Shown: positions 5,369 to 25,093, counted from the stretch's first letter. The stretch is DNA of 64,000 nt from Patescibacteria group bacterium UBA3531 (GCA_002376885.1 DFOW01000001.1:79381-143380), one strand, 5' to 3'. Notes: generated by a model from the letters alone, not told the origin. Numbers and translations are program-made.

Positions 5369-5379
5369 AGAGCTCTATA

Positions 5380-6216
5380 TTAAAGATTATTGTTTGCGTA
5401 TGCAAGCGCACCATACAGCCCCCCAATATCATTTAATTTTGCTTTTTTGAGGACAGGAGTATTTGGGAAAATTTTCATAATCTTTTTTAGATGCTTTTCA
5501 ACATGGGGCACAGCAATACCCACCTCTTTCATCATTGATCCTCCAAGAACAATTACATCCGGAGACCACAGCACCGTTATATTATTTAAACCAATTGCTA
5601 AAAGCTCTGCTTCTTTCTCCCATACTTCGTCGTCGTGAATATCGTATGGTTTTTTTCCATATCGCTCTTCGACAGCACTTCCACTAATGTAGCCCTCTAA
5701 ATGACCCTTATCTTTGCAATGAGAACACTCCACTCCTTGAAAATCAATAATCTGGTGCCCTGGCTCAAAGCCATGGGCGCTTGCATCAATACGTTGGTTT
5801 ACGATACGCGCGCCACCCACCCCCGTACTAATAGTTAAGTAAGCAACAATATCGTACCCCTTACCTGCGCCACTCACTGCCTCTCCAAGTCCAACAAGTG
5901 CCGAATCATTTTCTAAAAAAACAGGGCAATCAAATAGGTGTTCAAGCTCTTCTTTTATGGGAAGCCCTATCCAGGAATGCAAGTTGGGCGAATTAACAAG
6001 ACAAGATTTTTCTTTATTTAAAGGGCCAGCAATACCACCAACAACTGCTTCTAATTTTTTATCGCCACACAATTCATCAGCAACTTTTTTGATAGTTTTT
6101 AATTGTGTATCAAAATTTTTTTCAGTAGGGAAAATAACAGGATCAATAAAACTTTCTCCATTTTTTGAATACGTTACGCGAGTTTTTGTTCCCCCATTAT
6201 CAAATAAAAGATACAT
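5380..6216 (-). CDS. ROK-family sugar kinase (glucokinase-like)
   Basis: N-terminal LFDNGGTKTR ATPase motif. Cys/His-rich CSHCKDKGHLE zinc motif typical of ROK kinases. Confidence 0.8.
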   Translation of the reverse strand: MYLLFDNGGTKTRVTYSKNGESFIDPVIFPTEKNFDTQLKTIKKVADELCGDKKLEAVVGGIAGPLNKEKSCLVNSPNLHSWIGLPIKEELEHLFDCPVFLENDSALVGLGEAVSGAGKGYDIVAYLTISTGVGGARIVNQRIDASAHGFEPGHQIIDFQGVECSHCKDKGHLEGYISGSAVEERYGKKPYDIHDDEVWEKEAELLAIGLNNITVLWSPDVIVLGGSMMKEVGIAVPHVEKHLKKIMKIFPNTPVLKKAKLNDIGGLYGALAYANNNL

Positions 6217-6223
6217 GCCGTAA

Positions 6224-7195
6224 TTATACGGTATTCTTTACATGCGGTTTTGTATGCTTTTCACACGTGCCACCATATTTCCTTTCAAACTCATAGGCAC
6301 TTGTTGCAGCAACAGAACCTGTGCATGCTGCCGTAATATCTTGCTTAAAGCTTCCGAATATATTTACTGCGTCTCCTGCTGCACAGATTCCAGGGATATT
6401 GGTTTGCATCATATTGTTTACTTTTATGTATCCTTCTTCATCGAGAGCCACTCCCAGTGATTTTGGTAATTCAACATCAGGAACAGCACCAATCTCTATA
6501 AACAAACCATCTGCGACAAGTTCATTGTTTCCGTTAAATTCCTTTGAAAGTTTAACTTTTTCGAATTTTTCTGTTCCAATAATCTCTTCAATGGTTGTCT
6601 CATACAAAACCTCCACCTTGTCACCCAATTTTTCCATTTGTTCCAAGTTAATAGGCTCTCCATGAAGCTCTTTCTCCATTGTTATAAGATAAATCTTATC
6701 GGCATACTCACCTGCTAAATTTATTCCTTTAACGGATGCATCCCCTCCGCCAACTACAATTATTGTTTTACCGATATACAGCGGTGCATCGCAGGTTGCG
6801 CAGTAATGAATCCCTTTTCCGGTTAATTCTTTTTCATTGGGGAGGCCTAGGTGTCTGCGCTCTGTCCCGATAGCAAAAATTACCGTGCTTGTTTCGTATT
6901 TTTTATCTCGGGTGGAGACCACAAAGCAATCTCCTTCCTTTTCTACTTTTGTTACTTTGCCATCAATAATTTTTGCACCAACATTCTCTGCCTGCTCTTT
7001 CATAATCTTCATAAGATCGTACCCATCAATTGCCTTTGCACCAGGATAATTCCAAATAGTCCATGCAGTCGCAGTAGCGCCACCAAAGTCCTCGCCAATG
7101 GTGAGAACCTTCATTTTGTAGCGACCAGCATAAAGTGACGCAGCAAGCCCTGCAGCACCCGTACCAATTATGACAACATCGTAATGCTCCTCCAT
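6224..7195 (-). CDS. trxB: Thioredoxin-disulfide reductase
   Basis: FAD motif VVIIGTGAAGLAAS, redox-active CATCDAPL, NADPH motif VVGGGDASV. Confidence 0.9.
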   Translation of the reverse strand: MEEHYDVVIIGTGAAGLAASLYAGRYKMKVLTIGEDFGGATATAWTIWNYPGAKAIDGYDLMKIMKEQAENVGAKIIDGKVTKVEKEGDCFVVSTRDKKYETSTVIFAIGTERRHLGLPNEKELTGKGIHYCATCDAPLYIGKTIIVVGGGDASVKGINLAGEYADKIYLITMEKELHGEPINLEQMEKLGDKVEVLYETTIEEIIGTEKFEKVKLSKEFNGNNELVADGLFIEIGAVPDVELPKSLGVALDEEGYIKVNNMMQTNIPGICAAGDAVNIFGSFKQDITAACTGSVAATSAYEFERKYGGTCEKHTKPHVKNTV

Positions 7196-7201
7196 GTACC
7201 C

Positions 7202-7444
7202 TTACGCGCTAATGCCAGCAAGTTCTGCAAGCTTCTCTTTATTGAAGCCAACTAAAACTTGGCCATCAATATCAATAACCGGAACCCCCATTTGCCCCGA
7301 TTTTTCAATCATTTCGTTTCGAGCAGTTTCATCTTGTGTTACATCAACTGCTTCGTACTTTACATTATTTTCATCCAAAAACTCTTTTGTCATTTTACAG
7401 TAATGACAGGTTGGAGTTGTGTAAATCTTTATATTGTGCTCCAT
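7202..7444 (-). CDS. Glutaredoxin-like protein (NrdH/Grx family)
   Basis: 80 aa, CHYC active site at the N-terminus (KIYTTPTCHYCKMTKEFL), thioredoxin-fold pattern. Confidence 0.8.
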   Translation of the reverse strand: MEHNIKIYTTPTCHYCKMTKEFLDENNVKYEAVDVTQDETARNEMIEKSGQMGVPVIDIDGQVLVGFNKEKLAELAGISA

Positions 7445-7581
7445 GGTATTTTATTTATCTAATAAGTGATTCTTATTATATCGCTGAAATGTTATCTCGC
7501 AAAACAAGAAAAGACTCAATCCCCAGGTTTACTAATTTAATCCTTGCCTCGTGCCATACTTTAAACAGAGAGGGGGAGGTC

Positions 7582-7842
7582 ATGTTTGAACTTGTCCTCA
7601 TCTTCATTTCCACGTTCGATGGGAAAATGGCGGGAAGTACCGTCATCAATCATGAGGTCGTTGGTTTGTTCGACACCAAGACTCAATGTGAGCGACACGC
7701 CGACGCCTATGAAGGGGGTACGTGGCGCAAGTTCACGCTCATGGGCTCGAACAAGGACAACGAGAGGGTCCAGGTACAACTCATGATGAAGTGCATGCCA
7801 GCTGGCCAGGGACCGGCAGTTGCGAAGAGGCCGTCCAAATAA
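7582..7842 (+). CDS. Small hypothetical protein encoded in a high-GC patch
   Basis: GGAGG RBS directly upstream of the ATG, G/C-enriched third codon positions. Followed by a GC-rich hairpin (ggccg...cggcc) plus T-run. Confidence 0.4.
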   Translation: MFELVLIFISTFDGKMAGSTVINHEVVGLFDTKTQCERHADAYEGGTWRKFTLMGSNKDNERVQVQLMMKCMPAGQGPAVAKRPSK

Positions 7843-7886
7843 GGCGGCCTTTTCCCTACTCCATAACCCAAAAGTGTTACTCAAAA

Positions 7887-7915
7887 CAAAAGACCCCCCA
7901 ACGGGGCTCTTTTGC
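7887..7915. terminator. Bidirectional intrinsic-terminator-like hairpin (caaaagaCCCC...GGGGctcttttg) between convergent small genes
   Basis: Imperfect GC stem flanked by an A-run upstream and a T-run downstream on the plus strand. Confidence 0.45.
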
Positions 7916-7935
7916 AGCTTCTTTTAATATTAAAA

Positions 7936-8097
7936 TTAGCTCTTTGGGAGTATCTTGTACATCCCGGTACCACAGACGGAACACTTGCCCTTAGCTGCCT
8001 TTCGTCCATTCTTCATGGTAACCTCTTGGACGTCTTGCATCTCTCGGCCCGCTTTGTCCCGACACTTTACGCAGTACCCCATTACTTTGTCTGACAT
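7936..8097 (-). CDS. DUF5679-like small zinc-ribbon protein (53 aa)
   Basis: MSDKVMGYCVKCRDKAGREMQDVQEVTMKNGRKAAKGKCSVCGTGMYKI matches the CxxC-(MKNGR)-CxxCG pattern of the DUF5679 family common in Actinobacteria. Start chosen at the internal Met of the longer 112-aa ORF. Confidence 0.55.
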   Translation of the reverse strand: MSDKVMGYCVKCRDKAGREMQDVQEVTMKNGRKAAKGKCSVCGTGMYKILPKS

Positions 8098-8161
8098 ATA
8101 CAAAAATCCTACCACATAGGCAGGATTTTTGAATAGAGGCCTCCGCTCCTGTGGAAATCGA

Positions 8162-8545
8162 TTATTTGAACCATCCTTTGACTGACCGTGGGATTCCCTG
8201 CACAAAGAAGAGGGCAAGTGGTGCACCAATATTGGCAAATTGTTCAACAAAATCCCAAATCGGTTCTCCTGCAAGTGGGCGAAGCACAGCTGTCCATGTC
8301 CCCCAAAGAGTCATCCATAAGAGAAGAATTGGGATAAGCCGTACCAATACAAGAACCGCAAGGATTATATCCATAATTCCAATAAGTTGGAGCAATTGTG
8401 TGATTTGAGCAGGATCAGTCATTCCTATAACGTTGAAGTATGGGAACCATCCCTCCTTTCCTTGAAGCGCAAATACTCCATGCCCCAAAAATTCTCCCGC
8501 AACAGTAATACGCAAGGTCCATTCAACCTTTTTTTCGTTTGTCAT
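8162..8545 (-). CDS. Hypothetical integral membrane protein (about 4 TM)
   Basis: 127-aa ORF with native low GC and hydrophobic helices. Downstream hairpin aaaaatcctacc...ggcaggattttt (8103..8131). Confidence 0.6.
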   Translation of the reverse strand: MTNEKKVEWTLRITVAGEFLGHGVFALQGKEGWFPYFNVIGMTDPAQITQLLQLIGIMDIILAVLVLVRLIPILLLWMTLWGTWTAVLRPLAGEPIWDFVEQFANIGAPLALFFVQGIPRSVKGWFK

Positions 8546-8950
8546 AGGCTATGTAAAATTATGCTAATAATATTTTATCGACCTCTTTAAAAAAGAGAGG
8601 GAAAATTCACACCTTTATTATATCAAGCGCTCATGATCTAAAAACCAAAAAATCCCCTCTTTATGGGGATTTTTGTCCAGTGTGGTGGACCACACTATCC
8701 CGTCACTCGAACCGCTCCAATTCGCCCTGGTGTCGAACTTCGTCATCCTCTTTGGGACGAGAAGATGCTCGAGATGCAACGCAAATGGATTTGGGAATTG
8801 AATCCGAGATTAGAGAAAGATGAAGTTGAAGCTGCCGTCTATGCGTGGCTTGCGTATGCGGAGTATGTGGTAAGGTTGGTGGAGAGAAAGTGAACCAAAG
8901 AGAAAGGCCCGACCGAGGTCTGACCAATCTCTTGGTTGACCTGTCGGGCC

Positions 8951-9452
8951 CTACTTGTCCAGGTCGACGAACGAGGCGTCGATGAGCGTCAGGTACTCGA
9001 GGTCCGGACTGACGTCGCCGATGACGTTGCCGAGCTCGCCCACATCATCCGGGACGCCGACCACCAGGCACTCGAGGCCCATGTAGGTCACCTTCATGCC
9101 GGACTTGAGAGTCTGGCCCTTGAGCTGCTTGAGCACCTCGCGGGGAATCCCCTCGTCATCACCCCAGGCGAACGCGCGCGGAATCCCGAACCTCTCCAGA
9201 ACGCTGCTCCAGAAGAGCTCCGCGTCCCACTCCTCGTACTCCCCATCGGGATACTCCTCGAGACTTGTGACACGGGCAGCTTCCCGAAGAACGCTCGCCG
9301 GGATGCACGGACGGGTCGTCTCGTCGTCGGTGAAGAGACTCGGGAACCCCTTCTGGAGACCCTCGAGGGGTCGCCTTGTCGTCGGTCAAGCTCACGCAGA
9401 GCCTGAGCCACGGATCGGAGACCTTGCAGATTTCCTGCCAATTCCTGTTCAT
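8951..9452 (-). pseudogene. High-GC gene of unknown function, apparently frameshifted
   Basis: The minus-strand frame reading ...EEYPDGEYEEWDAELFWSSVLERFGIPRAFAWGDDEGIPREVLKQLKGQTLKSGMKVTYMGLECLVVGVPDDVGELGNVIGDVSPDLEYLTLIDASFVDLDK* has almost exclusively G/C at third positions. The only upstream ATG (9452, MNRNWQEICKVSDPWLRL) lies in a different frame. Confidence 0.45.
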
Positions 9453-9588
9453 GGTCCTTCTCTCTCCTTCCTGAATCCGCCAGCCGAAGCTGGTGTGTTC
9501 AGGTAGAGAGAGAAATCACTACCTGGGTGGATAGTGACACAGTATTGTGTATTTGTCTAGACTACGAGATTCACCGTAGTGACGATAG

Positions 9589-9662
9589 TGGACCCGACTG
9601 GATTCGAACCAGCGACCTCCTGAGTGCAAAACAGGTGCTCTAGCCAACTGAGCTACGGGCCC
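9589..9662 (-). tRNA. tRNA-Ala (anticodon UGC)
   Basis: Minus-strand sequence GGGCCCGUAGCUCAGUUGGCUAGAGCACCUGUUUUGCACUCAGGAGGUCGCUGGUUCGAAUCCAGUCGGGUCCA. Acceptor stem carries the G3:U70 wobble that is the Ala identity element, T-loop GGUUCGAAUCC, anticodon loop UUUGCAC. CCA is not encoded. Confidence 0.85.
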
Positions 9663-9738
9663 CTCACATGAAATCGTATTGCACGAAGTGCGTTTGCGAC
9701 TGCAAACAATACCATTTCATGTGAGGGGCTACGGGCCC
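9661..9738. repeat. Hairpin element beside the tRNA 5' end. It has a 14-bp inverted repeat (ccctcacatgaaat / atttcatgtgaggg) with internal sub-hairpins, and is flanked by a 13-bp direct repeat of the tRNA 5' end (gagctacgggccc / gggctacgggccc).
   Basis: Read directly: IR at 9661..9674 and 9715..9728. Inner stems gtattg/caatac, gtttgc-gact-gcaaac, gcac-gaa-gtgc. DR at 9650..9662 and 9726..9738. Confidence 0.6.
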
Positions 9739-9741
9739 TAC

Positions 9742-9999
9742 TCAACCCGCGAGAGAATTATATATTCTTTTCTTCAGATGTGTAAAGGCTCCACTAAATC
9801 TCTTCAACTGCTTTTCTCTATACTTTGCATCAGAACGAGAGTTATAAGCTTCGTAATATACTAACTCAAAAGGAGCCTTACTTTTTGTTGATTTACTCTG
9901 TTTTGTATTATGTTCCTCAAAACGTCTTTTTAAATCATTGGTATAACCAATATAGAGACTTTCATCTGTCTTGCTCTTCAAGACATACACATAATACAT
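9742..9999 (-). CDS. GIY-YIG nuclease-superfamily small protein (UPF0213-like)
   Basis: MYYVYVLKSKTDESLYIGYTNDLKRRFEEHN fits the GIY-x10-YIG motif followed by the R...E...N core. Confidence 0.8.
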   Translation of the reverse strand: MYYVYVLKSKTDESLYIGYTNDLKRRFEEHNTKQSKSTKSKAPFELVYYEAYNSRSDAKYREKQLKRFSGAFTHLKKRIYNSLAG

Positions 10000-10020
10000 A
10001 AGGGCAGAAGAATTATACTG

Positions 10021-10977
10021 TTACTTCCTTAAATGCGCAAGGTCTAAAACATGACCTAAAAAGTCTTTAAAAGACGTCCCTGCGCTCCGCAGGGATTTAT
10101 GCACCAAAGAATCACGGTGGAGCCCCGGCAAGCTGTTTACCTCGAGCAAAAAAACTCCTCGTTTTGGATCAATAATGCAATCAACTCGAGAATAATGACG
10201 CAACCCTAACTTTTTGTGAGCTTGTGCTGCAATGTTTTTAACCATCCAATGCTCTTCTGACGAAAGATCTTCTGGAAAAGTAAGATTTGAAATCTGCTGT
10301 TTAGTTTCGTAATCAAGAATAGGTGTATTTTTTTGGATAACTACAGGCGGCAAAACATGAACCACCCCGTCCCCCTCAACTACAAGAGACGAGACTTCTT
10401 TCCCGTTTATATATTCCTCAACAAGTACAGAATCGCCATATTCAAGAGCCTCCTCTACTCCACGTCTAAGTTCTTCAAACGATCGCGCATAGGATACTCC
10501 AAGTGATGCCCCCTCCCTTGTTGGCTTAATTACCCATGGCGGGCTCACAGAATTAAAAATGTACCTGAGTGCATTTTCTATATCATCGTTTTTGTGGATT
10601 ATGGTTGCATGGGGAATTTTGAATCCATGTTTTTTAAAGTGGTCCCGCGCCAAATGCTTGTGTAATGAGAGCATACTTGGGAACCCTTGCGAGCCCGTAT
10701 ATGGCACTCCTAGAGATTCTAGTATGTGTTGTACTTTTCCATCTTCTCCATACCCGCCATGCAATGCATTAAAGATGATATCTACTTTTCGCGCAGCCTC
10801 TTCTGGAGAAACAGGGGCTCCATATACATGCCATGTTCCATCACGAGCCACAAAAATATCGAGTGTATCAAAGTCTTCAGGAATGTTTTTTAAAACATGT
10901 TGGCCAGAAAGAACAGAAATATCGTAAAGAGAACTTTTGCCCCCACGCAAAACACCAACTACTTTTCGATTAGCCAT
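10021..10977 (-). CDS. ddl: D-alanine--D-alanine ligase (ATP-grasp)
   Basis: N-terminal KVVGVLRGGKSSL, ATP-grasp central region and C-terminal EVNSLPGL motifs. Confidence 0.85.
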   Translation of the reverse strand: MANRKVVGVLRGGKSSLYDISVLSGQHVLKNIPEDFDTLDIFVARDGTWHVYGAPVSPEEAARKVDIIFNALHGGYGEDGKVQHILESLGVPYTGSQGFPSMLSLHKHLARDHFKKHGFKIPHATIIHKNDDIENALRYIFNSVSPPWVIKPTREGASLGVSYARSFEELRRGVEEALEYGDSVLVEEYINGKEVSSLVVEGDGVVHVLPPVVIQKNTPILDYETKQQISNLTFPEDLSSEEHWMVKNIAAQAHKKLGLRHYSRVDCIIDPKRGVFLLEVNSLPGLHRDSLVHKSLRSAGTSFKDFLGHVLDLAHLRK

Positions 10978-11030
10978 AAAAAGATTGTATCACAGAGAAG
11001 TTTTTACTTCGCAAATTAAAAGCTAAGAGC

Positions 11031-14000
11031 TTAGTAGACTTCCTTAATCTTCGCACGCGTCATAGGCCCCGCATACCCGTAAAAGGCATCTGTTGGGATA
11101 GCTAAGTTATGTCGCTCTTGGAACTTCCCGACAGCTCGTCTGGTTAAGGTTCCATAGTAGCCAGTGGTTAAGCCTTCAGGGTAGATGGTGGTGTCTTGAG
11201 CAAGGATTTGTTGGAGAAGTCTTGTTTGACTACTGGTGGTATTGAATCTAAAGGGTCCGGTAAGGTTTGTGGTACTGACGGTAAAGGTTTGATTGCCTGT
11301 TGGTGAGGTGTTTCCTTGGAGAATGTTACGTACGGTATCTAAGGTAGTTTGATCAACGTTGAATGAGGTGAGTAGGGTGATTATGGACGTGACTTGGGCG
11401 CTTGTTAAGCCTGAACCTGTGCTTGGTTGTGAGGGCTGGGATGGAGTTTGTGGCTGAGTTGGGGTGGTTGTTTGTTTCCTTGTTCCACCGCTGAAACTTG
11501 GTGGTAGTGATGCTACTGCTCCCGTACTTGTAGTGGTGTTTGTGGTGCCTCCGGTATTGGTGATGGTGGCAGTGTCACTCGTTGTGTCAGTTGACTCTTT
11601 GGTATCAGTGAAGGTGGCCGTCAAAATGGTTGAACCACTTGGCACATTGAGGGCCCCATCACTTCCTGATACAGAGCCAGTATTAATACTTGGTGATCCG
11701 GTGAAGATACCGGTAGCGTTTCCAGTTTCAGTAAGGGTAACAGTTTCGGTGTCACCATTTGAAAGAGATGCGGTAATGGTAAAGGAGTCAGTACTTGTGG
11801 CACTGGTATTAGCATCTCCATCTAAGACGGTGATAGTTGGGCTGTCACTGGTGGTATAGCCATCTTGGTTTAAACTCGTCGTTGATGACGCACTAATGTA
11901 TCCCGTTGATTCGTTTAAGTAACCTCCTAGGTTGGTGAAGGAGTTGAGAACCGTGGTAACCGCACTCGTTAAGAAGCTTGCCCCACCATCGAGGGCTAAG
12001 TTGTAGTACTGAAGGACGGGGATGGTGGTTTGGGTACTGGTTGCCTTGTAGGTCACGGTACCGGTACCGGGAGTAAAGGTTCCGTTGACGGTGAGAGGAG
12101 TACTTGAGGCAGTGGCATCCGTTAAGAAGAGATTGTTTGATCCGAGTGAAAGGGTTTCTCCACTTGCAATGGTTAAGCCAGAGCTTGTGGCATTTGATCC
12201 AAGGGTGAGGGATGCCGCAGCAGTTGTTGAGGCAACGGTGAGATCTCCCAGGTCAAAGGCTCCACTGTTGTCCGTGAAGGTGGTGGTGCCATCGATGGTG
12301 AATGCTTCTCCGTTTCGAGTGTAAGATCCTCCACTTCCAATGGTAATGTCTTCTCCGACCGTTAGGGTGACATTGTTCGTGTCTATGTCTAAGTCACCAT
12401 CGGTGATGGTGAGATTGTTATCGACATCAACGTTATTTGAGAAGATGACGTCATTGCTTCCTGAAGCTCCGGTATTGTTGAGGGTGAGGTTGTAGAAGGA
12501 GTCATTGATTTCAATGGTTTGGTCAGTTGAGCCCGTAAAGGCGACTGTCCCCGTCCCCACAAAAAACGAGTCTGCCGTATCAAAAGTAAAATTTCCGCCA
12601 AGATTAAGAGTATTTCCATTTAGTATTCTTATAATACCCGTTGTAGGAAAAAGATGAGCCTCTGTAACATTTCCATTTATTGTTACGGTACTATCTCCAG
12701 ACAAAACAATATCTCCATCATAAAAACTAGCGGCCCCAAGTTGCGCGTTGCCTTCAATAGTAAGGTCATTCCCATTAGTATCCAAGTCTAAGGTCTTTAC
12801 AAGCCCAGATCTAATTAAAAAATTACCACCAATTGTTGTACTACCCGTTAAAGATAGTACATTACTGGCTGCACCAGAGTTATTACCGAAAAGGGTATAA
12901 TCTTCAAACAGACCTCCCAAAACATTTAAAGACGTAACAACTGTTGGGACCGCATAATAAAAGTCCGTATTAGCCATTAGGACAGTTGAGTTAGATGTAT
13001 TCATGGTTCCTGCATTCAAATAAATTTCGGTATTAGTAAAATCTTTGTGCTCTGTTATTGTCCCAGAACCTGGAAAAAAAATGTTCGTTACATAAAAACT
13101 ATTGGAATCTCCTCCTCGAAGCTGTGTTTCCTTTGTGCTGGTTGCAATTTCAAGATTATAAAATGTTAAATCTGTACCATCGGAGGGTCCGTAATCAATT
13201 CGACCATCCCCGATAAGTTTTACCGTACTTGTGTCGGGGGTAAAAATTGGAGCACCCCAACTACTAAGAGCAGCATACCTTAAAAAAGAAGAGTCTATGG
13301 TTATGGTCTCGTCATTGGCATCAAGTTCTCCAAACGTTCCAATCACTAAATCGCCCGCCCCAACAAAACCCTGTTCATCATCTACAGTTAAACTTGCGTT
13401 AAGGTCAAGAATAGTTGTAATTTGACCGCCGCAGGAACTAATAAAAGACCCGTGCGGTTTTCCTATCGTGAGTCTTCCAACGGTGACTGCTGATGTTACC
13501 GTAACGGTAGTGGTAGATGTTACCGTGTCGTCACACAGGGTCACGTCATACGTATTATCGTTTGGTATGGCACCACAGCTCCAGTTACTAGTTGAATCAG
13601 CCCAATCGGCATTTCCTCCAACCCATGAGCACTCGACTTTAGTACTGTTTGTTGTGGTTGCATTAAAGAATGGCTCTATAGGAAGGGAATAGGTACTACT
13701 GTCTGTTGGTACTGTTTCTCCCTGAGAATCATCACCATACCCCATAGACACAGCCAATATTCCAGTAGCTGCCTCTGCTAGATTAAGTTCCAGTTGGGTT
13801 GTGCCAACAGTGGCAACACTCGATACTGTTTTAGGAATACCATTGTCTGTGACATAAAAACCTCCCGACCCACTTCCCGGAAGAATGGGTCCTGTGTCAT
13901 CAGTAAATGTTAAGGTGATGGTGTCTCTTGTTCCGTTTTCCTCTGCACTAACAAAACGAGGGCCGCGCCCATCATCGGACCCACTATAGTATTCTCCTTC

Positions 14001-15050
14001 AAGTGCTGCCCATATTCTATTCGCAGCTGTTTGTAGGTCTTCGTTTGTTGAAATATGTGATCCATCTGGTGTGGCCAGATCATAAAGGGAGCCGCCAGGA
14101 ACAACATTACTATTATCATTCCATGCATCAACTTGTGCTTCCCTTATGGCATTTTTTGCCTCGTCTGTAGCAGAAGCTGAGACCATACCCACCACAACTG
14201 TTTTTACTCCAAAGTCTGAGTTTATAGCAGAAACAAGTGCATCAAGAGAAGTATTATATGCTGTTGACGCTGCCTGGAAAGCAGAGTCCGATTCTCCCTG
14301 CCAAAAAATAACGGCCTTCACTCCCCCAACACCACCAGCGGTGTTTATTCGTCTTTGCATAGAACCATACAAAGTTGTTGTAGCAGAGTTTTGTGCCCAA
14401 CCGGAAATAAAAGATCCAGATTTTGCTGCCGGAATAAAAGCAACAGGTACCCCCTGATCGGCAAGAAAGCGGGTAGCAACAAGGGGCCACACAGAACCCC
14501 CAGGAAAAGTAGAATCATCACTCACACTATCAACCTGATTAGTACTATCGTCTGTCGGATCAGTAAGTTCTTTCCAATTATCGTCGTTTCCAAAAAGAGA
14601 TGCTGCGAGAGTTGAGTGGGAATAGCTTTGGTTATTATCCCCTTTTCCTACTCCATTGCTTTGCCCCGCAATCACAAAAATATCACCAATACCAATCGTA
14701 GTAGTTGAATTACTGGTGTCGGTATCATCAGTAAACCGCACTTCAAGTGTTCCCTGCCCCGCTGTTTGATTAGTAGTTGTCCCAGTAAAAGCACCTCCAC
14801 TAGGGGAAGCGTCAATAGTTGTCCAGGACCCCCCATTAAAACGCGCTTCAATTGCTGCCGGAGAACCAGTATACGTACCTGAAATAGGGATATCTGCCTG
14901 ATCAGAACCGTCGCGTTGGAAAACCTGATACGGAACAGGTGAAGTTATTGTAACCGTTTGTGCGTAAGAGAAACTAGGTAAAAAAAACACAAAAAAAGTG
15001 ACCGGAAGGATCAGGAATAGGCACTTTTTTTCTGGAATTATTTTTTCCAT
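11031..15050 (-). CDS. Giant secreted surface protein with an N-terminal SASA/SGNH-type carbohydrate esterase domain. It then has a Cys/Trp motif region, a beta-helix-like Thr-rich region and the shared C-terminal module with a putative peptidoglycan-binding domain.
   Basis: Signal peptide. Esterase blocks IAGQSNGVGKG (Ser nucleophile), VIFWQGESDS, TPDGSHIS. Motif CSWVGGNADWADSTSNWSCGAIP. The C-terminal 620 aa are near-identical to the 1..3939 protein. Confidence 0.8.
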   Translation of the reverse strand: MEKIIPEKKCLFLILPVTFFVFFLPSFSYAQTVTITSPVPYQVFQRDGSDQADIPISGTYTGSPAAIEARFNGGSWTTIDASPSGGAFTGTTTNQTAGQGTLEVRFTDDTDTSNSTTTIGIGDIFVIAGQSNGVGKGDNNQSYSHSTLAASLFGNDDNWKELTDPTDDSTNQVDSVSDDSTFPGGSVWPLVATRFLADQGVPVAFIPAAKSGSFISGWAQNSATTTLYGSMQRRINTAGGVGGVKAVIFWQGESDSAFQAASTAYNTSLDALVSAINSDFGVKTVVVGMVSASATDEAKNAIREAQVDAWNDNSNVVPGGSLYDLATPDGSHISTNEDLQTAANRIWAALEGEYYSGSDDGRGPRFVSAEENGTRDTITLTFTDDTGPILPGSGSGGFYVTDNGIPKTVSSVATVGTTQLELNLAEAATGILAVSMGYGDDSQGETVPTDSSTYSLPIEPFFNATTTNSTKVECSWVGGNADWADSTSNWSCGAIPNDNTYDVTLCDDTVTSTTTVTVTSAVTVGRLTIGKPHGSFISSCGGQITTILDLNASLTVDDEQGFVGAGDLVIGTFGELDANDETITIDSSFLRYAALSSWGAPIFTPDTSTVKLIGDGRIDYGPSDGTDLTFYNLEIATSTKETQLRGGDSNSFYVTNIFFPGSGTITEHKDFTNTEIYLNAGTMNTSNSTVLMANTDFYYAVPTVVTSLNVLGGLFEDYTLFGNNSGAASNVLSLTGSTTIGGNFLIRSGLVKTLDLDTNGNDLTIEGNAQLGAASFYDGDIVLSGDSTVTINGNVTEAHLFPTTGIIRILNGNTLNLGGNFTFDTADSFFVGTGTVAFTGSTDQTIEINDSFYNLTLNNTGASGSNDVIFSNNVDVDNNLTITDGDLDIDTNNVTLTVGEDITIGSGGSYTRNGEAFTIDGTTTFTDNSGAFDLGDLTVASTTAAASLTLGSNATSSGLTIASGETLSLGSNNLFLTDATASSTPLTVNGTFTPGTGTVTYKATSTQTTIPVLQYYNLALDGGASFLTSAVTTVLNSFTNLGGYLNESTGYISASSTTSLNQDGYTTSDSPTITVLDGDANTSATSTDSFTITASLSNGDTETVTLTETGNATGIFTGSPSINTGSVSGSDGALNVPSGSTILTATFTDTKESTDTTSDTATITNTGGTTNTTTSTGAVASLPPSFSGGTRKQTTTPTQPQTPSQPSQPSTGSGLTSAQVTSIITLLTSFNVDQTTLDTVRNILQGNTSPTGNQTFTVSTTNLTGPFRFNTTSSQTRLLQQILAQDTTIYPEGLTTGYYGTLTRRAVGKFQERHNLAIPTDAFYGYAGPMTRAKIKEVY

Positions 15051-15152
15051 TTTGAATGATTATAGCACAGGGTCGCATTATGCCTGTGGATATGCTATAA
15101 GGTTTCTAGATTTATAACCTATTGCCCTTCGTGGCTAGGAAAGGACAGTACC

Positions 15153-16295
15153 TTGAGACATCGAAGTCGAGTCATGTTTTTTATGGCCGTAGTGGTCATG
15201 ATGAACATCGGTGCAAACGATTGCCAGAACAACCAGGCACCGGTCCCCTCTCCGCTTCCTCAGCCTCTCATGACGATGCTTGCAGGAAACGATATGGAGG
15301 TTCGTGGGAACGACTGCCCTGTCACCTCGACATTTGTTGAGGCAAGCTGGAACGGAGGCCCTTGGATCTACGTCGGCTCATGCACCCTCGGTGAGTACGA
15401 AGGATTTCTGCCTCCCCAGGGGGCTGGCCATGGAATCCTCGCCATCCGAGACAACACAGGGCAGATCCTCCGAACGACACTTTCTGTCGGATGGGGTCTA
15501 CCGATCGAGATCACCGGCCAGTCGAATGCCACTGGCCTCATGGAAACCTTGATCAATGCGATCTCTTCGCTTGCTTCGGTATTCATGGTCGGCCACCAGA
15601 ACGAGGCCGAATCCATCAAGCACGCCGACGATCGCTTCACCGACCACGGCAATGGCTCTGCGTGGCCCCTCCTTGCAGATGAAATCATTGGACAGACAGG
15701 GCTTCCTGTCATGTTCATTTCTTCACCGGTGGGGGCAACATCAGTCAGCCAGTGGGTTCCTGGTGGGAATCTTCGCGAAAGGGCGAAGGATCTGAGAATG
15801 ACCGCAACGAATGATTGTTCGGCTGCAGACATCTTCTACCAGGGAGAGAACGAACCTGTATTCGCCTCTAATCCCACGATCGATCCCGAAACGGGTCTGA
15901 CTTTTGGCGAGCTGTGGCTCGCCTCAATCGGGGGAGATTTGAAGCAGTACTACAAGGGAGAGCTCTTCAAGATCGCAGACGATCACATGAATGCGGGGTG
16001 TGGAGGAACTCCGCTTGTCATCGTCCAGATTGGAGACAATACTGCCAACCAGAATCCAGGTATCCAGGGCTTCATCCAAGAGGTTCGGGACGCCCAGTAC
16101 GAGGCAGCAATCGAGCACCCCAACATCCACCTGGGAGCCTGTACTGCCGGTCTTCCGGTCCCTGACGGTCTCCACCTGGGCGATGATGCTCGAGAGGAAT
16201 TCGTTTCGCGACTCATGAAAGGCTTGGCGCCAGTGCTCTGGGGTGGGCCGGTTCCAACCGACGAAGAGCTTGGATGCACGCCTCCGCAAGTCTAG
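15153..16295 (+). CDS. SASA/SGNH-type carbohydrate esterase encoded in a high-GC island (homologous to the N-terminal domain of the adjacent giant protein)
   Basis: Blocks ITGQSNATG, SAWPLLADEIIGQTGLPVMFISSPVGATSVSQW, IFYQGENEP, VPDGLHLGDD. Strong G/C third-position bias. The start may instead be the Met at 15174. GC-rich terminator follows the stop. Confidence 0.7.
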   Translation: MRHRSRVMFFMAVVVMMNIGANDCQNNQAPVPSPLPQPLMTMLAGNDMEVRGNDCPVTSTFVEASWNGGPWIYVGSCTLGEYEGFLPPQGAGHGILAIRDNTGQILRTTLSVGWGLPIEITGQSNATGLMETLINAISSLASVFMVGHQNEAESIKHADDRFTDHGNGSAWPLLADEIIGQTGLPVMFISSPVGATSVSQWVPGGNLRERAKDLRMTATNDCSAADIFYQGENEPVFASNPTIDPETGLTFGELWLASIGGDLKQYYKGELFKIADDHMNAGCGGTPLVIVQIGDNTANQNPGIQGFIQEVRDAQYEAAIEHPNIHLGACTAGLPVPDGLHLGDDAREEFVSRLMKGLAPVLWGGPVPTDEELGCTPPQV

Positions 16296-16313
16296 CACTC
16301 GAACTTTTCACAA

Positions 16314-16346
16314 GGGCCACGTACTTCCGGTACGTGGCCCTTTTCG
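16314..16346. terminator. Intrinsic terminator hairpin gggccacgtac-ttccg-gtacgtggccc followed by a T-run, between the convergent esterase and giant-protein genes
   Basis: Perfect 11-bp GC-rich stem read directly, with ttttcgtt downstream. Confidence 0.6.
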
Positions 16347-16371
16347 TTCATATAGTTATATGTTTTTTCTC

Positions 16372-19107
16372 TTACTTCTCAAATACCTCCCTCATCTTTG
16401 CTCTAGTTTGTGGTCCTGCATACCCATAAGCAGGGTGGTCTGGTCCTGCAATGGTGTGGCGAATCTGGAACCGTTCTACAGCTTTGGTAGTAAGTGTTCC
16501 ATAGTAGCCAGTGATTAATCCTTCAGGGTAGATAGTAGGGTCCTGAGCGAGTATTTGTTGGAGTAATCTGTTTTGTGGCGTGGTTTGGTTCACCTGGAAA
16601 GGCCCTGTGAGTTGTGAGACATCAATTGCATAGGTGGTTTGTTGTGATTGGTTTCCTTCTAAAATACGTCGTACAGTCTCAAGAGTGATTTGATCTACAT
16701 TAAAAGAGGTGAGAAGCGTAATAATGGAGGTGATTTGAGAGTTTGAGAGGCTGCTTCCTGTGCTTGGTTGAGTTGGAGTGATTGGAGTACTGCCCGTATT
16801 TTGTGAGAAACTTGGGGGGAGAACAGCAACAGAGCCGGTGGATGAAGAGGATGAGGACCCAGAAGCGGCGGCAGCTTGGGACGCTGAATGAGTAACCGTT
16901 GCCGTATCGGTCGAGATATCGATTGATTCTTTTGAATCAATGAACGTTAATGTAAGAGTATCATTCCCACCAATGGGGAAATCAAGTGTACCGTCTCCTG
17001 TTGTCACGCTTCCTGTCGCAAGCGTAATGGTTCCAGTAAAGACACCTGTTGCATTGCCAGTTTCAGTTAAGGTAACAGTTTCTGTATCAGTTGCAATAGT
17101 GGTGGTGGCCACAATACTATCGGTCGAAGTGGCACTAATATTCGCGTCGTAGTCAGTAACCGTAAGGGTAACCGTATCCCCTGTTTCGTAAGAGGTTGCA
17201 TCAAGTGCCGCAGATGAAGAAGCACTAATGTAACCCGTTGCTTCGTTCAGATAACCAGCACTATTGGTAAAGGTTCCTGTAACAGTGGTCACCCCTTCTG
17301 TCACAAACGAGGCTGCCCCTCCTAGAGTTAAATTATTGTATTGAGTAGCTTCAATAGTGGTTTGAGTTGAGGTTGCCTTGTAGTTAACAGTACCTGTTCC
17401 TGGAGTGAAAGTTCCGTTTACAGTCAGGGGAGTTGAGCTTCCAGTGGCATCAGTAAGGTACAGCGTATTGGAACCAAGGGCCAAGGTTTCTCCACTTCCC
17501 ACCACGATACCAGAACTTGTTGCATTTGATCCCAAAGTGAAGGTTGCAGCAGCTGAGGATGAGGCAATAGTAAATTCTCCTAGGTTGAACACCCCAGAGT
17601 TATCTGTATAGGTAGTAGTACCATCAAAAGTAAGTGATTCATTTGTTCGGGTCCAAGCCCCATTTAGTCCCACGGTAAAGTCTCCCCCTATCGTGAGGGT
17701 CGCATCGTTGGTATCAATATCCAAATCCCCGTCAGTTAGTGTAAGGTCATTATCGACATCAACATTGTTGGTAAATATCACATCGTCATTCCCTGTTGAG
17801 CCAGTATGATTTACCACAAGATCGTAGAAAGAGTTTCCTGCAACCATATCAATTGTTTGATCAGTTGAAGTTGCAACCAGGTTTACTGTTGACGTTCCAA
17901 AACTAAATGTTGCTGTTTCAGCCCCGTTTACCATGTCGATATCGCCAGAAAAATTCACTGTATTACCATTATGTACTTGTATAGCTGCTGACTCCCCATT
18001 ATTTTCATACGCAGTAAAATCGTGAAAAGACGCGGTACTGTTTCCTGTGACATCAATACGAGAGGGATAATATACAACATTTACCCCAAGTAGGTCTTCT
18101 CCTAGTTGGGTGGTTCCATACTGAACATCAAGATCATAACCCGCAGTAGTTAAGGTGGAAACATTTGTATCGTGGTTGCCGTAAAACCTAAAGCCAGTTG
18201 ATGTTGCTGTGATATCACCAGTAAGAGTTAGCGTCATAGCACCCCCAGCATTGTCTGCTCTTCCGATATCAATGCCATTTGCTGTGAAAGGAGGTATGTT
18301 GTGAGTAGTTCCTAGGGCAGTAAATTGAATCCTTGTAACCGGCGTAAGAGCAACTCCGTTTCTCAAAACTACAGGTGTGGTGTTAATACTTGAGCTAGGA
18401 AATGATAGTGAGTCGTTCCCCAAAAAACCAATAAATGGTGCTCCATTCAAAACAAGCTGGTGATTAATACTAATAGGAGTAGAATAAGCAATCGACCAAA
18501 AGGAAGTCTGAATGTGCACCAACTTATAAAAAACTAGTGTTGAGTTATCGGTTGTAGTAACAAAATGCCCAGTAAGTCCATCAAAAACATATGTTGCTGT
18601 CTCTGGCTGAATTCCTTGCAAGGAGGATGTAACAGTACTCCCCAAGCGTCCAAAAATAGTTGTTGTTCCTGTTCCTGGATAATATCTTCCTCGAGAGTTG
18701 GCATTAAGGAACCCGGCCTCTGTAAATCCCTCTGAGTTGGTGATCGTAACATTTGCTCCATCGTTTATGTCAACCGTATGGATCCTACTATTACATGTTG
18801 AAGTGGTTGAACCAACTTGGAGTCTCCCCAGTGTGATACTTGTTGTGGCCGTAACTGTAATATTTCCACTTGCAGAAGTGTTACAAATATCTACATTGTA
18901 CTCTGCACCATCTGGAAAAGCGCCACAACTCCAGTTACTAACTGAGTCAAACCATCCTCCACTTCCATCTTTTATCCAATTACATTTTGTTTCGGCGGCA
19001 TACACAAATGTACCACCCAAAAAAGAGAGTCCCATAAAGAGCAAAGACAGAAACAATGCAAAAAAGGGAAAGTTTTTTAAATTTTTTTTACTAAAAAATT
19101 TTTTCAT
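16372..19107 (-). CDS. Giant secreted surface protein, paralog 3. Cys/Trp-motif N-terminal head, beta-helix-like Thr-rich region, and a diverged copy of the shared C-terminal module with putative peptidoglycan-binding domain.
   Basis: Signal peptide/TM at the N-terminus. CNWIKDGSGGWFDSVSNWSCGAFP motif. TSTDQTID...NNVDVDNDLTLTDGDLDIDTN block and C-terminal ITSIITLLTSFNVDQ...YPEGLITGYYG...YGYAGP, each aligning with the other two giants. Confidence 0.8.
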   Translation of the reverse strand: MKKFFSKKNLKNFPFFALFLSLLFMGLSFLGGTFVYAAETKCNWIKDGSGGWFDSVSNWSCGAFPDGAEYNVDICNTSASGNITVTATTSITLGRLQVGSTTSTCNSRIHTVDINDGANVTITNSEGFTEAGFLNANSRGRYYPGTGTTTIFGRLGSTVTSSLQGIQPETATYVFDGLTGHFVTTTDNSTLVFYKLVHIQTSFWSIAYSTPISINHQLVLNGAPFIGFLGNDSLSFPSSSINTTPVVLRNGVALTPVTRIQFTALGTTHNIPPFTANGIDIGRADNAGGAMTLTLTGDITATSTGFRFYGNHDTNVSTLTTAGYDLDVQYGTTQLGEDLLGVNVVYYPSRIDVTGNSTASFHDFTAYENNGESAAIQVHNGNTVNFSGDIDMVNGAETATFSFGTSTVNLVATSTDQTIDMVAGNSFYDLVVNHTGSTGNDDVIFTNNVDVDNDLTLTDGDLDIDTNDATLTIGGDFTVGLNGAWTRTNESLTFDGTTTYTDNSGVFNLGEFTIASSSAAATFTLGSNATSSGIVVGSGETLALGSNTLYLTDATGSSTPLTVNGTFTPGTGTVNYKATSTQTTIEATQYNNLTLGGAASFVTEGVTTVTGTFTNSAGYLNEATGYISASSSAALDATSYETGDTVTLTVTDYDANISATSTDSIVATTTIATDTETVTLTETGNATGVFTGTITLATGSVTTGDGTLDFPIGGNDTLTLTFIDSKESIDISTDTATVTHSASQAAAASGSSSSSSTGSVAVLPPSFSQNTGSTPITPTQPSTGSSLSNSQITSIITLLTSFNVDQITLETVRRILEGNQSQQTTYAIDVSQLTGPFQVNQTTPQNRLLQQILAQDPTIYPEGLITGYYGTLTTKAVERFQIRHTIAGPDHPAYGYAGPQTRAKMREVFEK

Positions 19108-19278
19108 AATACAAATAACCTCGCCAGCAAATGCGGTTTTACACGAGTACTTTAATTATACAAAAAAACATCCCTTAAAATAGGAGTTTTCTACAGTTTG
19201 ACACTTATAGGCTTTTATTATTTATTTTAGTTTTGAGATACAAAATCACCTTTCCAAATACTGTGCCCTCTTTTGCCT

Positions 19279-20496
19279 TTACAAAAAAGATTTTGCTCGT
19301 TTTTGCTTATGGTAAGCAATGGCGTAGCGGTGAGTGTCGGCATTGAGTGCCACAATATCATCTTTGTGTTTTGTGATGATTGACTTGAGACCCAATAATT
19401 TTGTAGCCTTGTGTCTAGCATCTTTTACCACGCCAACCACAGGAATTTTATAGTTGAGCTCTTCTAAAACATCTTTTGCCACGTTTACTTGTGCTGTTCC
19501 TCCATCTATCACAAGAATGTTTGGCTTTTGCCACTCGTCATGACGAAAACGTCTGTCCAACACCTCACGCAGGTTTCCCGTGTCGTCAATCCCTTTTCCA
19601 CTTTTTATTTTAAATTTTCTATATTCTTGTTTAGCTAAATTTCCTCCCTCCATAACAGCCATGACACCCACCACGTCACTCCCTGCCATGTGCGCAATGT
19701 CATAACTTTCAATACGAAGACCAATATTTGTTCTGTCATGAGTCCGTCCATCTTTTTTAAGGAGCGCGACATCGTGAATGTGTTCGAGTGAAAAAATTCG
19801 ATTTCGTATAATTGCCGCCTTCTCAAACTCTTTTTTAGAAACGTATCCCTTCATTTCTTGTTTTAAGTTTTTAAGAACCTCTTTCTTCTTACCAGTAAAA
19901 AAGAGACTGATATTTTTTACCAGTTCACTATATTCTTTTTTTGAAATCTCCCCCATGCATACTCCTGGACACAATCCAATTTGAGCATTAAAACAAGGTT
20001 TTTTTTGATCAACTTCGCATTTGTCTCGCCATGGAAAAATTTTGCGAACAATACGCATTGCTTCTTTTAATTCTCCCCCTCGTGTAAAAGGACCGAATGT
20101 TTTTTTGTATTGCTCATGTGATTCACGCAACTCTTTACCACGAACAAGAACAACTCGTGGATAATCCTCTTTGGTTATTGCCACATAGTTATAGCTTTTA
20201 TCGTCCTTTTCTTTGACGTTATATGGGGGTTTGAATTTTTTTATAAATTCGCTTTCAAGCAAAAGCGCCTCAAGTACAGAATCAGTTTTTACTACTTCTA
20301 CACTATCGGCCTCCTCTACCATCTGCACAATCCGGGGCCCACGACTCTCTACCACATCTTTATTAAAATAACTCTTTACACGATCAGAAAGACTGGTTGC
20401 CTTACCAACATAGAGTGGAGTTTTTACTCGCTTTTTTTTAAAGAGATAAATCCCCGGCTCAGCAGGTATTTTTTTAGATACATCTTTCTTTTTCAT
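19279..20496 (-). CDS. uvrC: Excinuclease ABC subunit C, short form lacking the C-terminal (HhH)2 domain
   Basis: GIY-YIG (PGIYLFKK...LYVGKATSLSDRVKSYF), UVR domain (EFEKAAIIRNRIFSLEHI), endonuclease V-like region (ESYDIAHMAGSDVVGVMAV). Only 405 aa. Confidence 0.85.
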   Translation of the reverse strand: MKKKDVSKKIPAEPGIYLFKKKRVKTPLYVGKATSLSDRVKSYFNKDVVESRGPRIVQMVEEADSVEVVKTDSVLEALLLESEFIKKFKPPYNVKEKDDKSYNYVAITKEDYPRVVLVRGKELRESHEQYKKTFGPFTRGGELKEAMRIVRKIFPWRDKCEVDQKKPCFNAQIGLCPGVCMGEISKKEYSELVKNISLFFTGKKKEVLKNLKQEMKGYVSKKEFEKAAIIRNRIFSLEHIHDVALLKKDGRTHDRTNIGLRIESYDIAHMAGSDVVGVMAVMEGGNLAKQEYRKFKIKSGKGIDDTGNLREVLDRRFRHDEWQKPNILVIDGGTAQVNVAKDVLEELNYKIPVVGVVKDARHKATKLLGLKSIITKHKDDIVALNADTHRYAIAYHKQKRAKSFL

Positions 20497-20557
20497 AGAC
20501 CTATGATACTATACGCGAAGACTTGAGCTCACAACCCCTTACAAGAAGGAAGAAATC

Positions 20558-20953
20558 ATGAGCGAACCCGATGGAAAAGTTCAATTGCCACCCTCTCCAC
20601 CTCTCGACTTGCACCTGCTCATTAGCAGTGTGCTCATGCAGGAAGCGGAAGAACTCCTGGAGGAGCTCGGCATCGTAGAGAAGCTCGAACCCTTCATTGC
20701 GAGCGCCCTCGAGTCGATCGAACGATCTCGACAGGCAGAGATCGCAAATACCAGGGAGAAGCTCGGGCCGTTCTTCAAGATCGACACGGAAGTTCCGGAG
20801 CCGGTGCGGGGAGTTTCTCCTCCTCCTGCACACCTGCTCGAGAAGATGGGGGGACTTCGGAAGCCCGCCCTCGAGCGACTCGGCGAGCTTCTCGGTCGTG
20901 CACTCAAGCACAGGATCGATGCACGCTACCGAACGATCGGAAGCACTGCCTAG
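20558..20953 (+). CDS. Hypothetical protein in a high-GC patch between uvrC and uvrA
   Basis: 131-aa ORF with G/C-biased third positions, acidic helical sequence, followed by a GC-rich terminator. Confidence 0.45.
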   Translation: MSEPDGKVQLPPSPPLDLHLLISSVLMQEAEELLEELGIVEKLEPFIASALESIERSRQAEIANTREKLGPFFKIDTEVPEPVRGVSPPPAHLLEKMGGLRKPALERLGELLGRALKHRIDARYRTIGSTA

Positions 20954-20960
20954 AAGGGCT

Positions 20961-20995
20961 CACGGCCGGAGGAAACTCCGGCCGTGCTCTATTTA
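20961..20995. terminator. Intrinsic terminator cacggccggag-gaaa-ctccggccgtg plus T-rich tail (bidirectional; uvrA converges on it)
   Basis: Perfect 11-bp stem and GAAA tetraloop read directly. Confidence 0.65.
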
Positions 20996-23541: not shown

Positions 23542-23693
23542 ATTCCATTTTTAAGATTGCCTGTCCCGTAGCTTTTGTTAAAGACAGAGTGGTACCGGGA
23601 TGGGTCCGTGCTCCTTTTACGATAATTTCTTCTTCCATAATTAATTGACGAGGGTGTAATTTTGTGTTAAATATTTCTTCGGAGGTGCGTGCC

Positions 23694-23936: not shown

Positions 23937-24010
23937 TAACTTCATAAGAAGTTTTAGGCGCTCTGTTAATTTTCATATAATTTAAAATCATAGTCTGGAT
24001 ACCTACGTTG

Positions 24011-25036: not shown

Positions 25037-25093
25037 AACAGCCCCCGATTCCTTTCTACTGGGGGTATGGGACCATTATAGCACATCCATCAA

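Follow-up and report, generated by a model that had tools for sequence, protein, structure and literature searches.

A GC-rich gene for a putative secreted SGNH-fold esterase, probably acquired by horizontal transfer, next to a giant surface protein with a distantly related head in a Patescibacteria genome

Genomic context of ORF380

The DNA considered here, referred to as the window, is a stretch of 64,000 nucleotides from Patescibacteria group bacterium UBA3531 (GCA_002376885.1 DFOW01000001.1:79381-143380), in which a GC-rich, stand-alone open reading frame (ORF) of the + strand, ORF380 (15153..16295, 380 aa), encodes a putative esterase next to a giant gene whose product carries a related domain. 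This giant gene (11031..15050, - strand, 1339 aa) is divergent from ORF380 and separated from it by 102 nt. Its product is composed of a head (aa 1-470, 13641..15050) with a signal peptide, a beta-sandwich and a SASA esterase domain (aa 123-337, 14040..14684; Pfam PF03629, 92.3 bits), followed by a repetitive, Thr/Gly/Ser-rich surface region (11031..13640) with a C-terminal PG_binding_1 domain detected by Pfam (aa 1274-1334, 11049..11231). On its other side, ORF380 is convergent with ORF911 (16372..19107, - strand), encoding a giant surface protein of 911 aa with a C-terminal PG_binding_1 domain and without an esterase head. ORF911 is a tandem paralogue of the body of the 1339-aa giant, as illustrated by 56% identity across 605 aa and by direct repeats in the DNA that link the two genes with a spacing of ~5.34 kb.

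The three genes form a block (11031..19107) that fills the 8.3 kb between ddl (10021..10977, - strand) and uvrC (19279..20496, - strand). This site was compared with that of 80 related Paceibacteria loci (L005-L084), of which 73 had enough downstream flank. In 24 of these 73 loci ddl is found less than 600 nt downstream of uvrC, and in about 11 others the distance is 0.6-5 kb, to be compared with 8.3 kb in the window. No homologue of the 1339-aa giant, of ORF380 or of ORF911 was present at the uvrC-ddl site in any of the 80 related loci. Hence, the giant-ORF380-giant block is a lineage-specific accessory insertion between uvrC and ddl. The UvrC of the window is at most ~55% identical to those of Vogel-, Taylor- and Paceibacteria-type metagenome-assembled genomes (MAGs) among the GTDB species representatives, and with all relatives at this distance the empty site speaks for the block as a whole and not for ORF380 alone. 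More generally, related Paceibacteria have uvrA, uvrC and ddl in a conserved neighbourhood, in which the uvrC-ddl gap varies and looks like an insertion hotspot.

In the divergent intergenic region (15051..15152), read straight from the sequence, the - strand carries TGTGCTATAAT, a perfect extended -10 motif located 8 nt upstream of the giant ATG (within 15051..15075). Because no Shine-Dalgarno sequence intervenes between this motif and the ATG, the giant transcript may be leaderless or near-leaderless. On the + strand, TGCTATAAG is followed by the Shine-Dalgarno-like GGAAAGGA and, 7 nt further, by the TTG codon at 15153 that starts ORF380. This start is supported by the MR.RS N-terminus that ORF380 has in common with P0002, a homologue that matches it over its full length with 49% identity. 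As a consensus promoter scan returned nothing in 15051..15152 at its threshold, the promoter elements named here are to be regarded as putative. Between the convergent ORF380 and ORF911 lies a GC-rich hairpin (16312..16342, + strand), formed by a 14-bp stem and a 3-nt loop and followed by TTTCGTT, with an RNAfold free energy of -25.0 kcal/mol. It is not listed by a consensus terminator scan, and is probably the intrinsic terminator of ORF380.

Base composition and codon usage

Compositional islands left by horizontal gene transfer (HGT) are a textbook phenomenon, and the genome that hosts ORF380 is a Patescibacteria (Paceibacteria-like) genome of roughly 41% GC. The GC content of ORF380 is 0.561, with values of 0.614, 0.451 and 0.617 at the first, second and third codon positions (GC1, GC2 and GC3), whereas the head of the giant has a host-like composition (GC 0.446, GC3 0.298). 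GC3 amounts to 0.366 for the full giant and to 0.332 for ORF911. For 43 further ORFs of the window, GC3 has a mean of 0.335 (sd 0.044) and never exceeds 0.445, so that ORF380 lies at z = 6.5. If the ORF380 protein were encoded with the codon usage of the host, its GC3 would be 0.343 instead of the observed 0.617; the GC anomaly is therefore not caused by amino-acid content. The codon log-likelihood ratio (LLR), computed per codon between a host table and a high-GC usage table, was +0.45 for ORF380 against a host mean of 1.86 (sd 0.14), i.e., 10 sd apart. Finally, a two-change-point likelihood scan (LLR 25.3), complemented by a 200-nt GC profile, delimited a maximum-likelihood GC-rich segment at 15233..16341, with a GC content of 0.570 inside and of 0.447 in the flanks. 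This segment matches ORF380 plus the downstream hairpin. ORF380 is thus atypical in both composition and codon usage, as expected for a horizontally acquired gene.

These results bear out most of what an earlier reading of the window, made from the sequence alone (the sequence-only reading), had put forward on the locus itself. The coordinates and orientation that it gave for the giant and for ORF380 are right, and the GC-rich hairpin that it placed after ORF380 is real. The contrast that it described, between a gene rich in G/C third positions and a low-GC head, is borne out by GC3. The two analyses that it proposed on this point gave the predicted outcome, GC steps being found close to the expected positions (15100 and 16350) and codon usage departing from that of host genes.

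Predicted fold and activity of the ORF380 protein

In the ORF380 protein, a signal peptide (~aa 1-26) precedes an N-terminal beta-sandwich of the seven-strand type (~aa 31-120), which is followed by an SGNH domain (~aa 116-365). It has the three motifs of the SASA/SGNH family, i.e., GQSN (block I), QGE (block III) and DxxH (block V), in the form of ITGQSNATG, YQGENE and PDGLH, the corresponding sequences of the giant being IAGQSNGVG, WQGESD and PDGSH. The predicted nucleophile is Ser124 of the GQSN block (codon 15522..15524, + strand), and the other predicted catalytic positions are Q230-G231-E232 in block III and D338/H341 in PDGLH (His codon 16173..16175). In a 49-sequence alignment the invariant columns are G122, Q123, S124, N125, G231 and H341. 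An AlphaFold2 model built from this alignment, with a mean predicted local distance difference test of 88.3 and a predicted template modelling score of 0.86, displays a signal-peptide helix, beta-sandwich strands at residues 41-122, and then an alpha/beta domain. The SGNH alpha/beta/alpha fold is recognised by Foldseek with a probability of 1.00 to 7kmm, 8f9r, 1zmb and 2apj, the best match in the PDB being 7kmm (E 3e-17, ~370 columns, template modelling score 0.57-0.59). A profile of the ORF380 clade searched against PDB sequences led to the same set (2apj, 4e-11; 1zmb, 2e-9). As an n-region, an h-region and a conserved Cys are found at the N-terminus of all six clade members, the protein is predicted to be secreted. 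ORF380 appears to be an intact gene for a putative secreted SGNH-fold carbohydrate O-acetylesterase of the SASA/CE6-like superfamily. Its substrate would be an O-acetylated glycan, perhaps one exposed on the cells of a partner organism.

Structures are already available for esterases of the SASA/CE6/CE20 type that carry beta-sandwich extensions (PMC8245568, PMC12313940), and ORF380 can be compared with several of them. The same GQSN, QGE and DxxH blocks and the SGNH fold are found in the SASA PF03629/CE6-like proteins 1zmb (Clostridium acetobutylicum, acetylxylan-esterase-related) and 2apj (Arabidopsis At4g34215), which are matched with Foldseek E values of ~1e-10 to 1e-11. Unlike these proteins, ORF380 possesses an additional N-terminal beta-sandwich of ~90 residues and a signal peptide, and it stands apart from the family by a marginal Pfam score and by its membership of a rare, divergent clade. 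The closest structural match, with 17% identity, is the CE20 enzyme XacXaeA of Xanthomonas citri (XAC1771, PDB 7kmm; PMC8245568). This enzyme has an SGNH core with a classical Ser-His-Asp triad, seven-stranded beta-sandwiches at the N- and C-terminus, the former packing on the core, and an inserted X448 domain (PMC8245568). Indeed, the hallmark of CE20 is the X448 ancillary domain that splits the SGNH core, along with beta-sandwiches at both ends (PMC8245568, PMC12313940). By comparison with the 638 aa of XacXaeA, ORF380 has 380 aa and neither the X448 insert nor the C-terminal beta-sandwich. An assignment of ORF380 to CE20 of CAZy was thus considered and rejected, its SGNH core being contiguous and its length leaving no room for X448 or for a C-terminal sandwich. 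Nothing points to xyloglucan as the substrate of ORF380. Sialate O-acetylesterases (mammalian SIAE, PDB 8f9o/8f9r, and bacterial proteins annotated as such) belong to the same superfamily and share the fold, with 13-16% identity to ORF380. NCBI annotates homologues of the giant's head as sialate O-acetylesterase; this label reflects the family name only, and the window shows no genes that would suggest a sialic-acid context.

Relationship between ORF380 and the head of the giant

By BLASTP, ORF380 and the giant are joined by one high-scoring segment pair that aligns aa 31-342 of the former with aa 35-333 of the latter (22% identity over 337 residues, E 6e-14). This alignment covers the N-terminal domain motif (WNGGPW/FNGGSW) in addition to the GQSN, GS.WPL, G.PV.FI, (Y/W)QGE and PDG.H blocks. 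The two proteins are true but distant homologues over both domains, in line with the sequence-only reading, according to which they would align beyond GQSN and share the NGG.W domain. The same reading had also raised the possibility that ORF380 was the source of the giant's head, and this proposal has to be abandoned. The head, which with 92.3 bits is a clear member of PF03629, has 523 homologues in a word search, the best at 54% identity. They are distributed among Patescibacteria (some with the same PG_binding_1 tail), Bacteroidota (with type IX secretion system tails), Armatimonadota and Chloroflexota. The nearest of them, P0003, lies on a 37.7%-GC contig and has a host-like GC3 of 0.28. 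When family members are ranked by their distance from the head, ORF380 comes 240th of 243, and the two were never grouped in neighbour-joining (NJ) trees (0/100 bootstraps). Domain donation in either direction being rejected, ORF380 and the head are distant cousins brought together, i.e., xenologues that have become adjacent by neither local duplication nor domain donation. Since the whole giant-ORF380-giant block is accessory, the head is itself "native" in composition only.

Phylogeny of the ORF380 clade and GC content of its source

An exhaustive HMMER search of 1.84 billion cluster representatives, in which P0002 was represented by ORF380's own cluster, retrieved three non-self proteins at E <= ~1e-30 (P0126, P0127 and P0128), while P0129 (7.4e-30) was found just beyond this cut-off. 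After the members of the clade, the listing passes to the large family containing the giant's head. Identity to ORF380 is 49% for P0002, 36% for P0126, 33% for P0127, 31% for P0128 and 28% for P0129. A word-indexed search with the six-sequence clade alignment found no further clade members, and the GTDB species-representative genomes, scanned with the ORF380+P0002 alignment, gave no match. Likewise, JGI metagenome contigs contained no match to ORF380 and none to an alignment of the ORF911 N-terminus. The ORF380 clade is therefore very small and patchy, and it moves between hosts of widely different GC. Indeed, P0002, P0129 and P0257 (a near-identical member of the P0127 cluster, used in its place) are located on 72-74%-GC contigs. 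The contig of P0002 (73% GC) encodes an aromatic-ring hydroxylase, an SDR and an enoyl-CoA hydratase as neighbours, and one high-GC clade relative stands in a Gram-negative-type context with SurA, PilZ, ATP synthase and UvrA. Actinobacteria, among which homologues were to be sought according to the sequence-only reading, are not specifically indicated by any of these data.

In NJ trees (100 bootstraps), ORF380 and P0002 were grouped with a support of 98, and ORF380, P0002, P0126 and P0129 with a support of 93. The sister of ORF380 is thus carried by a 73%-GC contig, which is incongruent with its presence in a genome of roughly 41% GC. The indel/motif states WLASIGGDL and PSPLPQPLM are common to ORF380 and P0002 only. 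In the family, GC3 follows the host, with 0.92 in 73%-GC contigs and 0.28 for P0003 in its 38%-GC contig. P0129 (674..1873 of contig L089; GC 0.636, GC3 0.76) is GC-poorer than its own 72%-GC contig, so that members of this clade depart from the composition of their hosts towards higher GC in some and towards lower GC in others. In P0126 (1511..2605 of contig L085), GQSG and NGE replace GQSN and QGE, and its catalysis may be relaxed or altered.

The Muto-Osawa and Lawrence-Ochman regressions relate the GC content of each codon position to genomic GC. With these regressions, the GC1 (61.4) and GC3 (61.7) of ORF380 both correspond to a source genome of ~56% GC; GC2 is high across all family members (45-54%) and hence uninformative in this respect. 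Amelioration from 73% towards 40% GC should put GC3 ahead of GC1, and in ORF380 GC3 is not ahead. Because GC1 and GC3 agree in this way, the simplest reading is that ORF380 arrived fairly recently from a donor lineage, as yet unsampled, with a moderately high GC content, a partial amelioration from a very high-GC donor being also conceivable. P0128, for which GC1 implies 59% and GC3 implies 47%, looks like a more ameliorated copy.

Origin of ORF380

The explanation that best accounts for these observations, and that we consider probable as a whole, is that ORF380 entered its host by horizontal transfer from a GC-richer bacterium, that it encodes a putative esterase of the kind described above, and that it landed in the block of giant genes. 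The gene would have come apparently along with its own hairpin terminator, and its site of arrival would be an accessory block of giant peptidoglycan-anchored surface proteins which itself interrupts uvrC-ddl. For the process, we infer uptake by transformation followed by illegitimate recombination, and the direction and age of the transfer are likewise deduced. Patescibacteria have been reported to carry comEC and pilus DNA-uptake genes, and inter-phylum HGT into Patescibacteria from donor phyla outside this group has been surveyed (PMC12455944). As in the cases of that survey, ORF380 is a single gene of foreign composition and foreign affinity in a Paceibacteria genome; unlike them, it repeats a predicted function that an adjacent giant surface protein already has, and several more GC-rich islets occur in the same 64 kb. 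The sequence-only reading had proposed that one of the two esterases is native and the other laterally acquired from a high-GC donor. The second part holds to the extent that ORF380 is alien in composition and misplaced in phylogeny. The first part applies to the head in composition only, and the high-GC donor calls for a qualification: the nearest relative (73% GC) is just 49% identical, and GC1 and GC3 fit a ~56%-GC source.

Several points weigh against a recent horizontal acquisition of an esterase gene. The match of ORF380 to the SASA profile PF03629 (24.6 bits, E 2.3e-5) is 0.2 bits under the gathering score of 24.8, P0002 carrying a precomputed match to the same profile. All trees were of the NJ type. 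The searches revealed no donor, the closest relative being only 49% identical, which leaves the date and the direction of the transfer uncertain. No integrase, transposase, tRNA target or convincing target-site duplication flanks ORF380 or is found in 11031..19107; the search for flanking repeats returned, besides the paralogy repeats of the giants, a single T-rich direct repeat of 9 nt (ATGTTTTTT, with copies at 15174 and 16360), which is near chance expectation. In addition, viral contigs yielded only distant SASA proteins (23-35% identity), giving no evidence of a phage vector, and ORF380 had no match among the plasmids of PLSDB. The assemblies in which the gene recurs may, for several of them, share raw reads and are perhaps not independent. 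Finally, a second contig with a similar arrangement, L085, could mean long residence in this Patescibacteria group and not recent arrival.

An assembly or binning chimera, in which a GC-rich fragment would have been misjoined into a Patescibacteria contig, would account for the sharp step in composition at the gene boundaries, and the flanking giants, as repetitive paralogues, could mislead assemblers. It is nevertheless very improbable. The insert is internal to one contig with host sequence on both sides, and its junctions are in unique intergenic DNA, outside the repeats of the giants. The exact ORF380 protein is recorded in GEM, NCBI (MAZ40892.1, 'hypothetical protein CL654_02145 [bacterium]', also under Tara), ENA, JGI and Logan, on contigs of up to 233 and 246 kb. 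The order ddl-giant-ORF380-ORF911-uvrC is conserved, with mostly the same neighbour proteins, on at least three contigs of 50-246 kb from different sources and pipelines (an ENA megahit contig, an NCBI/Tara MAG and GEM), and an ENA contig (L004, ERZ27286447) is base-identical to the window over 21 kb (5153..26295). At the assembly level, the locus is thus unlikely to be an artefact; moreover, L085 shows an analogous juxtaposition in another organism. A GC richness intrinsic to ORF380, resulting from amino-acid composition or from selection on mRNA or expression, can invoke the unusually high GC2 of the family in all hosts (45-54%). We give it equally little credence, in view of the GC3 expected under host codon usage (0.343, against 0.617), of the GC3 of the homologous head in the same genome (0.298), and of the way in which family members track the GC content of their hosts, from 0.28 for P0003 to 0.92 in the 73%-GC contigs. 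As for a local duplication or domain donation between ORF380 and the head, with the GC difference arising later, it would be suggested by their adjacency and by their common two-domain architecture and motif blocks. It is extremely unlikely: the two share 22% identity whereas 523 head homologues are closer, up to 54%, and neither the rank of ORF380 by distance from the head nor the bootstraps bring them together. Besides, no mutational process is known to bring a single paralogue to a GC3 of 0.62 in a genome where GC3 is 0.33.

The alternative of an older presence is illustrated by contig L085 (2.7 kb), on which P0126 (52.3% GC, flank 42.8%; GC3 0.518, against 0.353 in the neighbour) is adjacent to, and divergent from, an orthologue of ORF911 (56% identical over 400 aa). 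With this contig, most likely from related Patescibacteria, there are two low-GC contigs on which a member of this rare clade, foreign in composition, adjoins an ORF911-type giant gene. According to this scenario, the gene would have been acquired long ago by, or would be ancestral to, a Paceibacteria sub-lineage, ORF380 and P0126 would be vertical orthologues functionally coupled to ORF911-type giants with a maintained elevated GC, and high-GC organisms would have received their copies from Patescibacteria. The direct neighbourhood of a clade member and an ORF911-type gene at both loci, with ORF911 orthologues 56% identical, speaks for it, as does P0129, which with a GC3 of 0.76 in a 72%-GC contig indicates that transfers into high-GC hosts occur too. 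This scenario is nonetheless unlikely, as the high-GC P0002, and not P0126, is the partner of ORF380 in 98/100 bootstraps, and WLASIGGDL and PSPLPQPLM are shared by ORF380 and P0002 only. Furthermore, at 36% protein identity synonymous sites should have equilibrated, yet GC3 is 0.62 and 0.52 for ORF380 and P0126, against 0.33-0.35 for their neighbours, and the orientation relative to the ORF911-type gene differs, being convergent in the window and divergent in L085. With P0002 rather than P0126 as the sister of ORF380, the topology requires at least two inter-lineage transfers. Possible options for the two loci are independent captures near giants, a giant+esterase cassette moving among Patescibacteria, or a transfer out of Patescibacteria.

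Under horizontal acquisition, ORF380 is an ordinary, well-documented case of a xenologue beside a distant cousin. It would represent a clean, well-bounded inter-lineage acquisition by an ultra-small Patescibacteria genome with little room for accessory DNA, and it would duplicate in soluble form the activity predicted at the tip of the neighbouring giant surface protein. What is mildly unusual is the rarity of the clade, the interleaving of high-GC and Patescibacteria hosts, the recurrence beside ORF911-type genes and the presence of further GC-rich islets in the window.

Other GC-rich islets and giant genes of the window

At least four sharp GC-rich islets were detected in the 64 kb. The islet at 35491..35964 (+ strand) consists of a 157-aa ORF with an N-terminal IclR/MarR-type helix-turn-helix (Pfam, 1.7e-10), a GC content of 0.641 and a GC3 of 0.861. 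It is sharper than ORF380, the 200-nt GC profile going from 0.40 to 0.69 and then to 0.36, and it lies on the + strand among - strand host genes. No homologue of this ORF was found in the 80 related Paceibacteria loci, and plasmids gave weak matches only (34-39% identity). This ORF, too, was probably acquired, more recently and from a donor of very high GC. Between uvrC and uvrA, a second islet (20497..20988, GC 0.573) contains a 131-aa ORF (20558..20953, + strand, GC3 0.652) with no Pfam match and no match in related loci. A region of ~1 kb at 8600..9560 (as well as 7561..7884) has a GC content of 0.56-0.64 and overlapping stop-free frames on both strands, and it abuts a tRNA-Ala(TGC) gene (9588..9662). 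Neither Pfam (above threshold) nor Rfam (even at E <= 0.05) gave a match there, and the region may represent a foreign insert, now decayed, beside a tRNA or an undescribed structured RNA. Across the whole window, Rfam finds only this tRNA-Ala, both at the gathering threshold and at E <= 0.05, so the other GC-rich islands are not known RNAs. No sequence in common was found among the islands by blastn. The candidate ORFs of the islets (15153, 20558, 35491, and possibly 8936 and 42707) are all on the + strand, while the backbone is almost wholly on the - strand, which holds about 40 of the 44 long ORFs of the window.

A broader hypothesis, which is speculative and rather unlikely as it stands, is that single genes are taken up time and again by this lineage from GC-rich bacteria, which may be the cells on which it lives, and that the window and L085 perhaps represent at least two independent recruitments of esterases of the rare clade beside ORF911-type giants. 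If true, the soluble deacetylase would act together with anchored, adhesin-like fibres in the attack on, or docking to, a partner with an O-acetylated surface, and the composition of the islets could mark the host of this Paceibacteria lineage. If the GC-rich islets all came from one donor, they could indicate the organism with which this uncultured episymbiont is physically associated, information that is otherwise difficult to obtain.

The window also contains a third giant gene (1..3939, - strand), with an FG-GAP head and the same PG-binding tail. The three giants (1..3939, 11031..15050 and 16372..19107), all on the - strand, have in common a Thr/Gly-rich body and a C-terminal PG_binding_1 domain, and their heads differ, consisting of FG-GAP repeats in the first, of the SASA esterase in the second and being absent in ORF911. 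They resemble a modular family in which the N-terminal heads have been exchanged.

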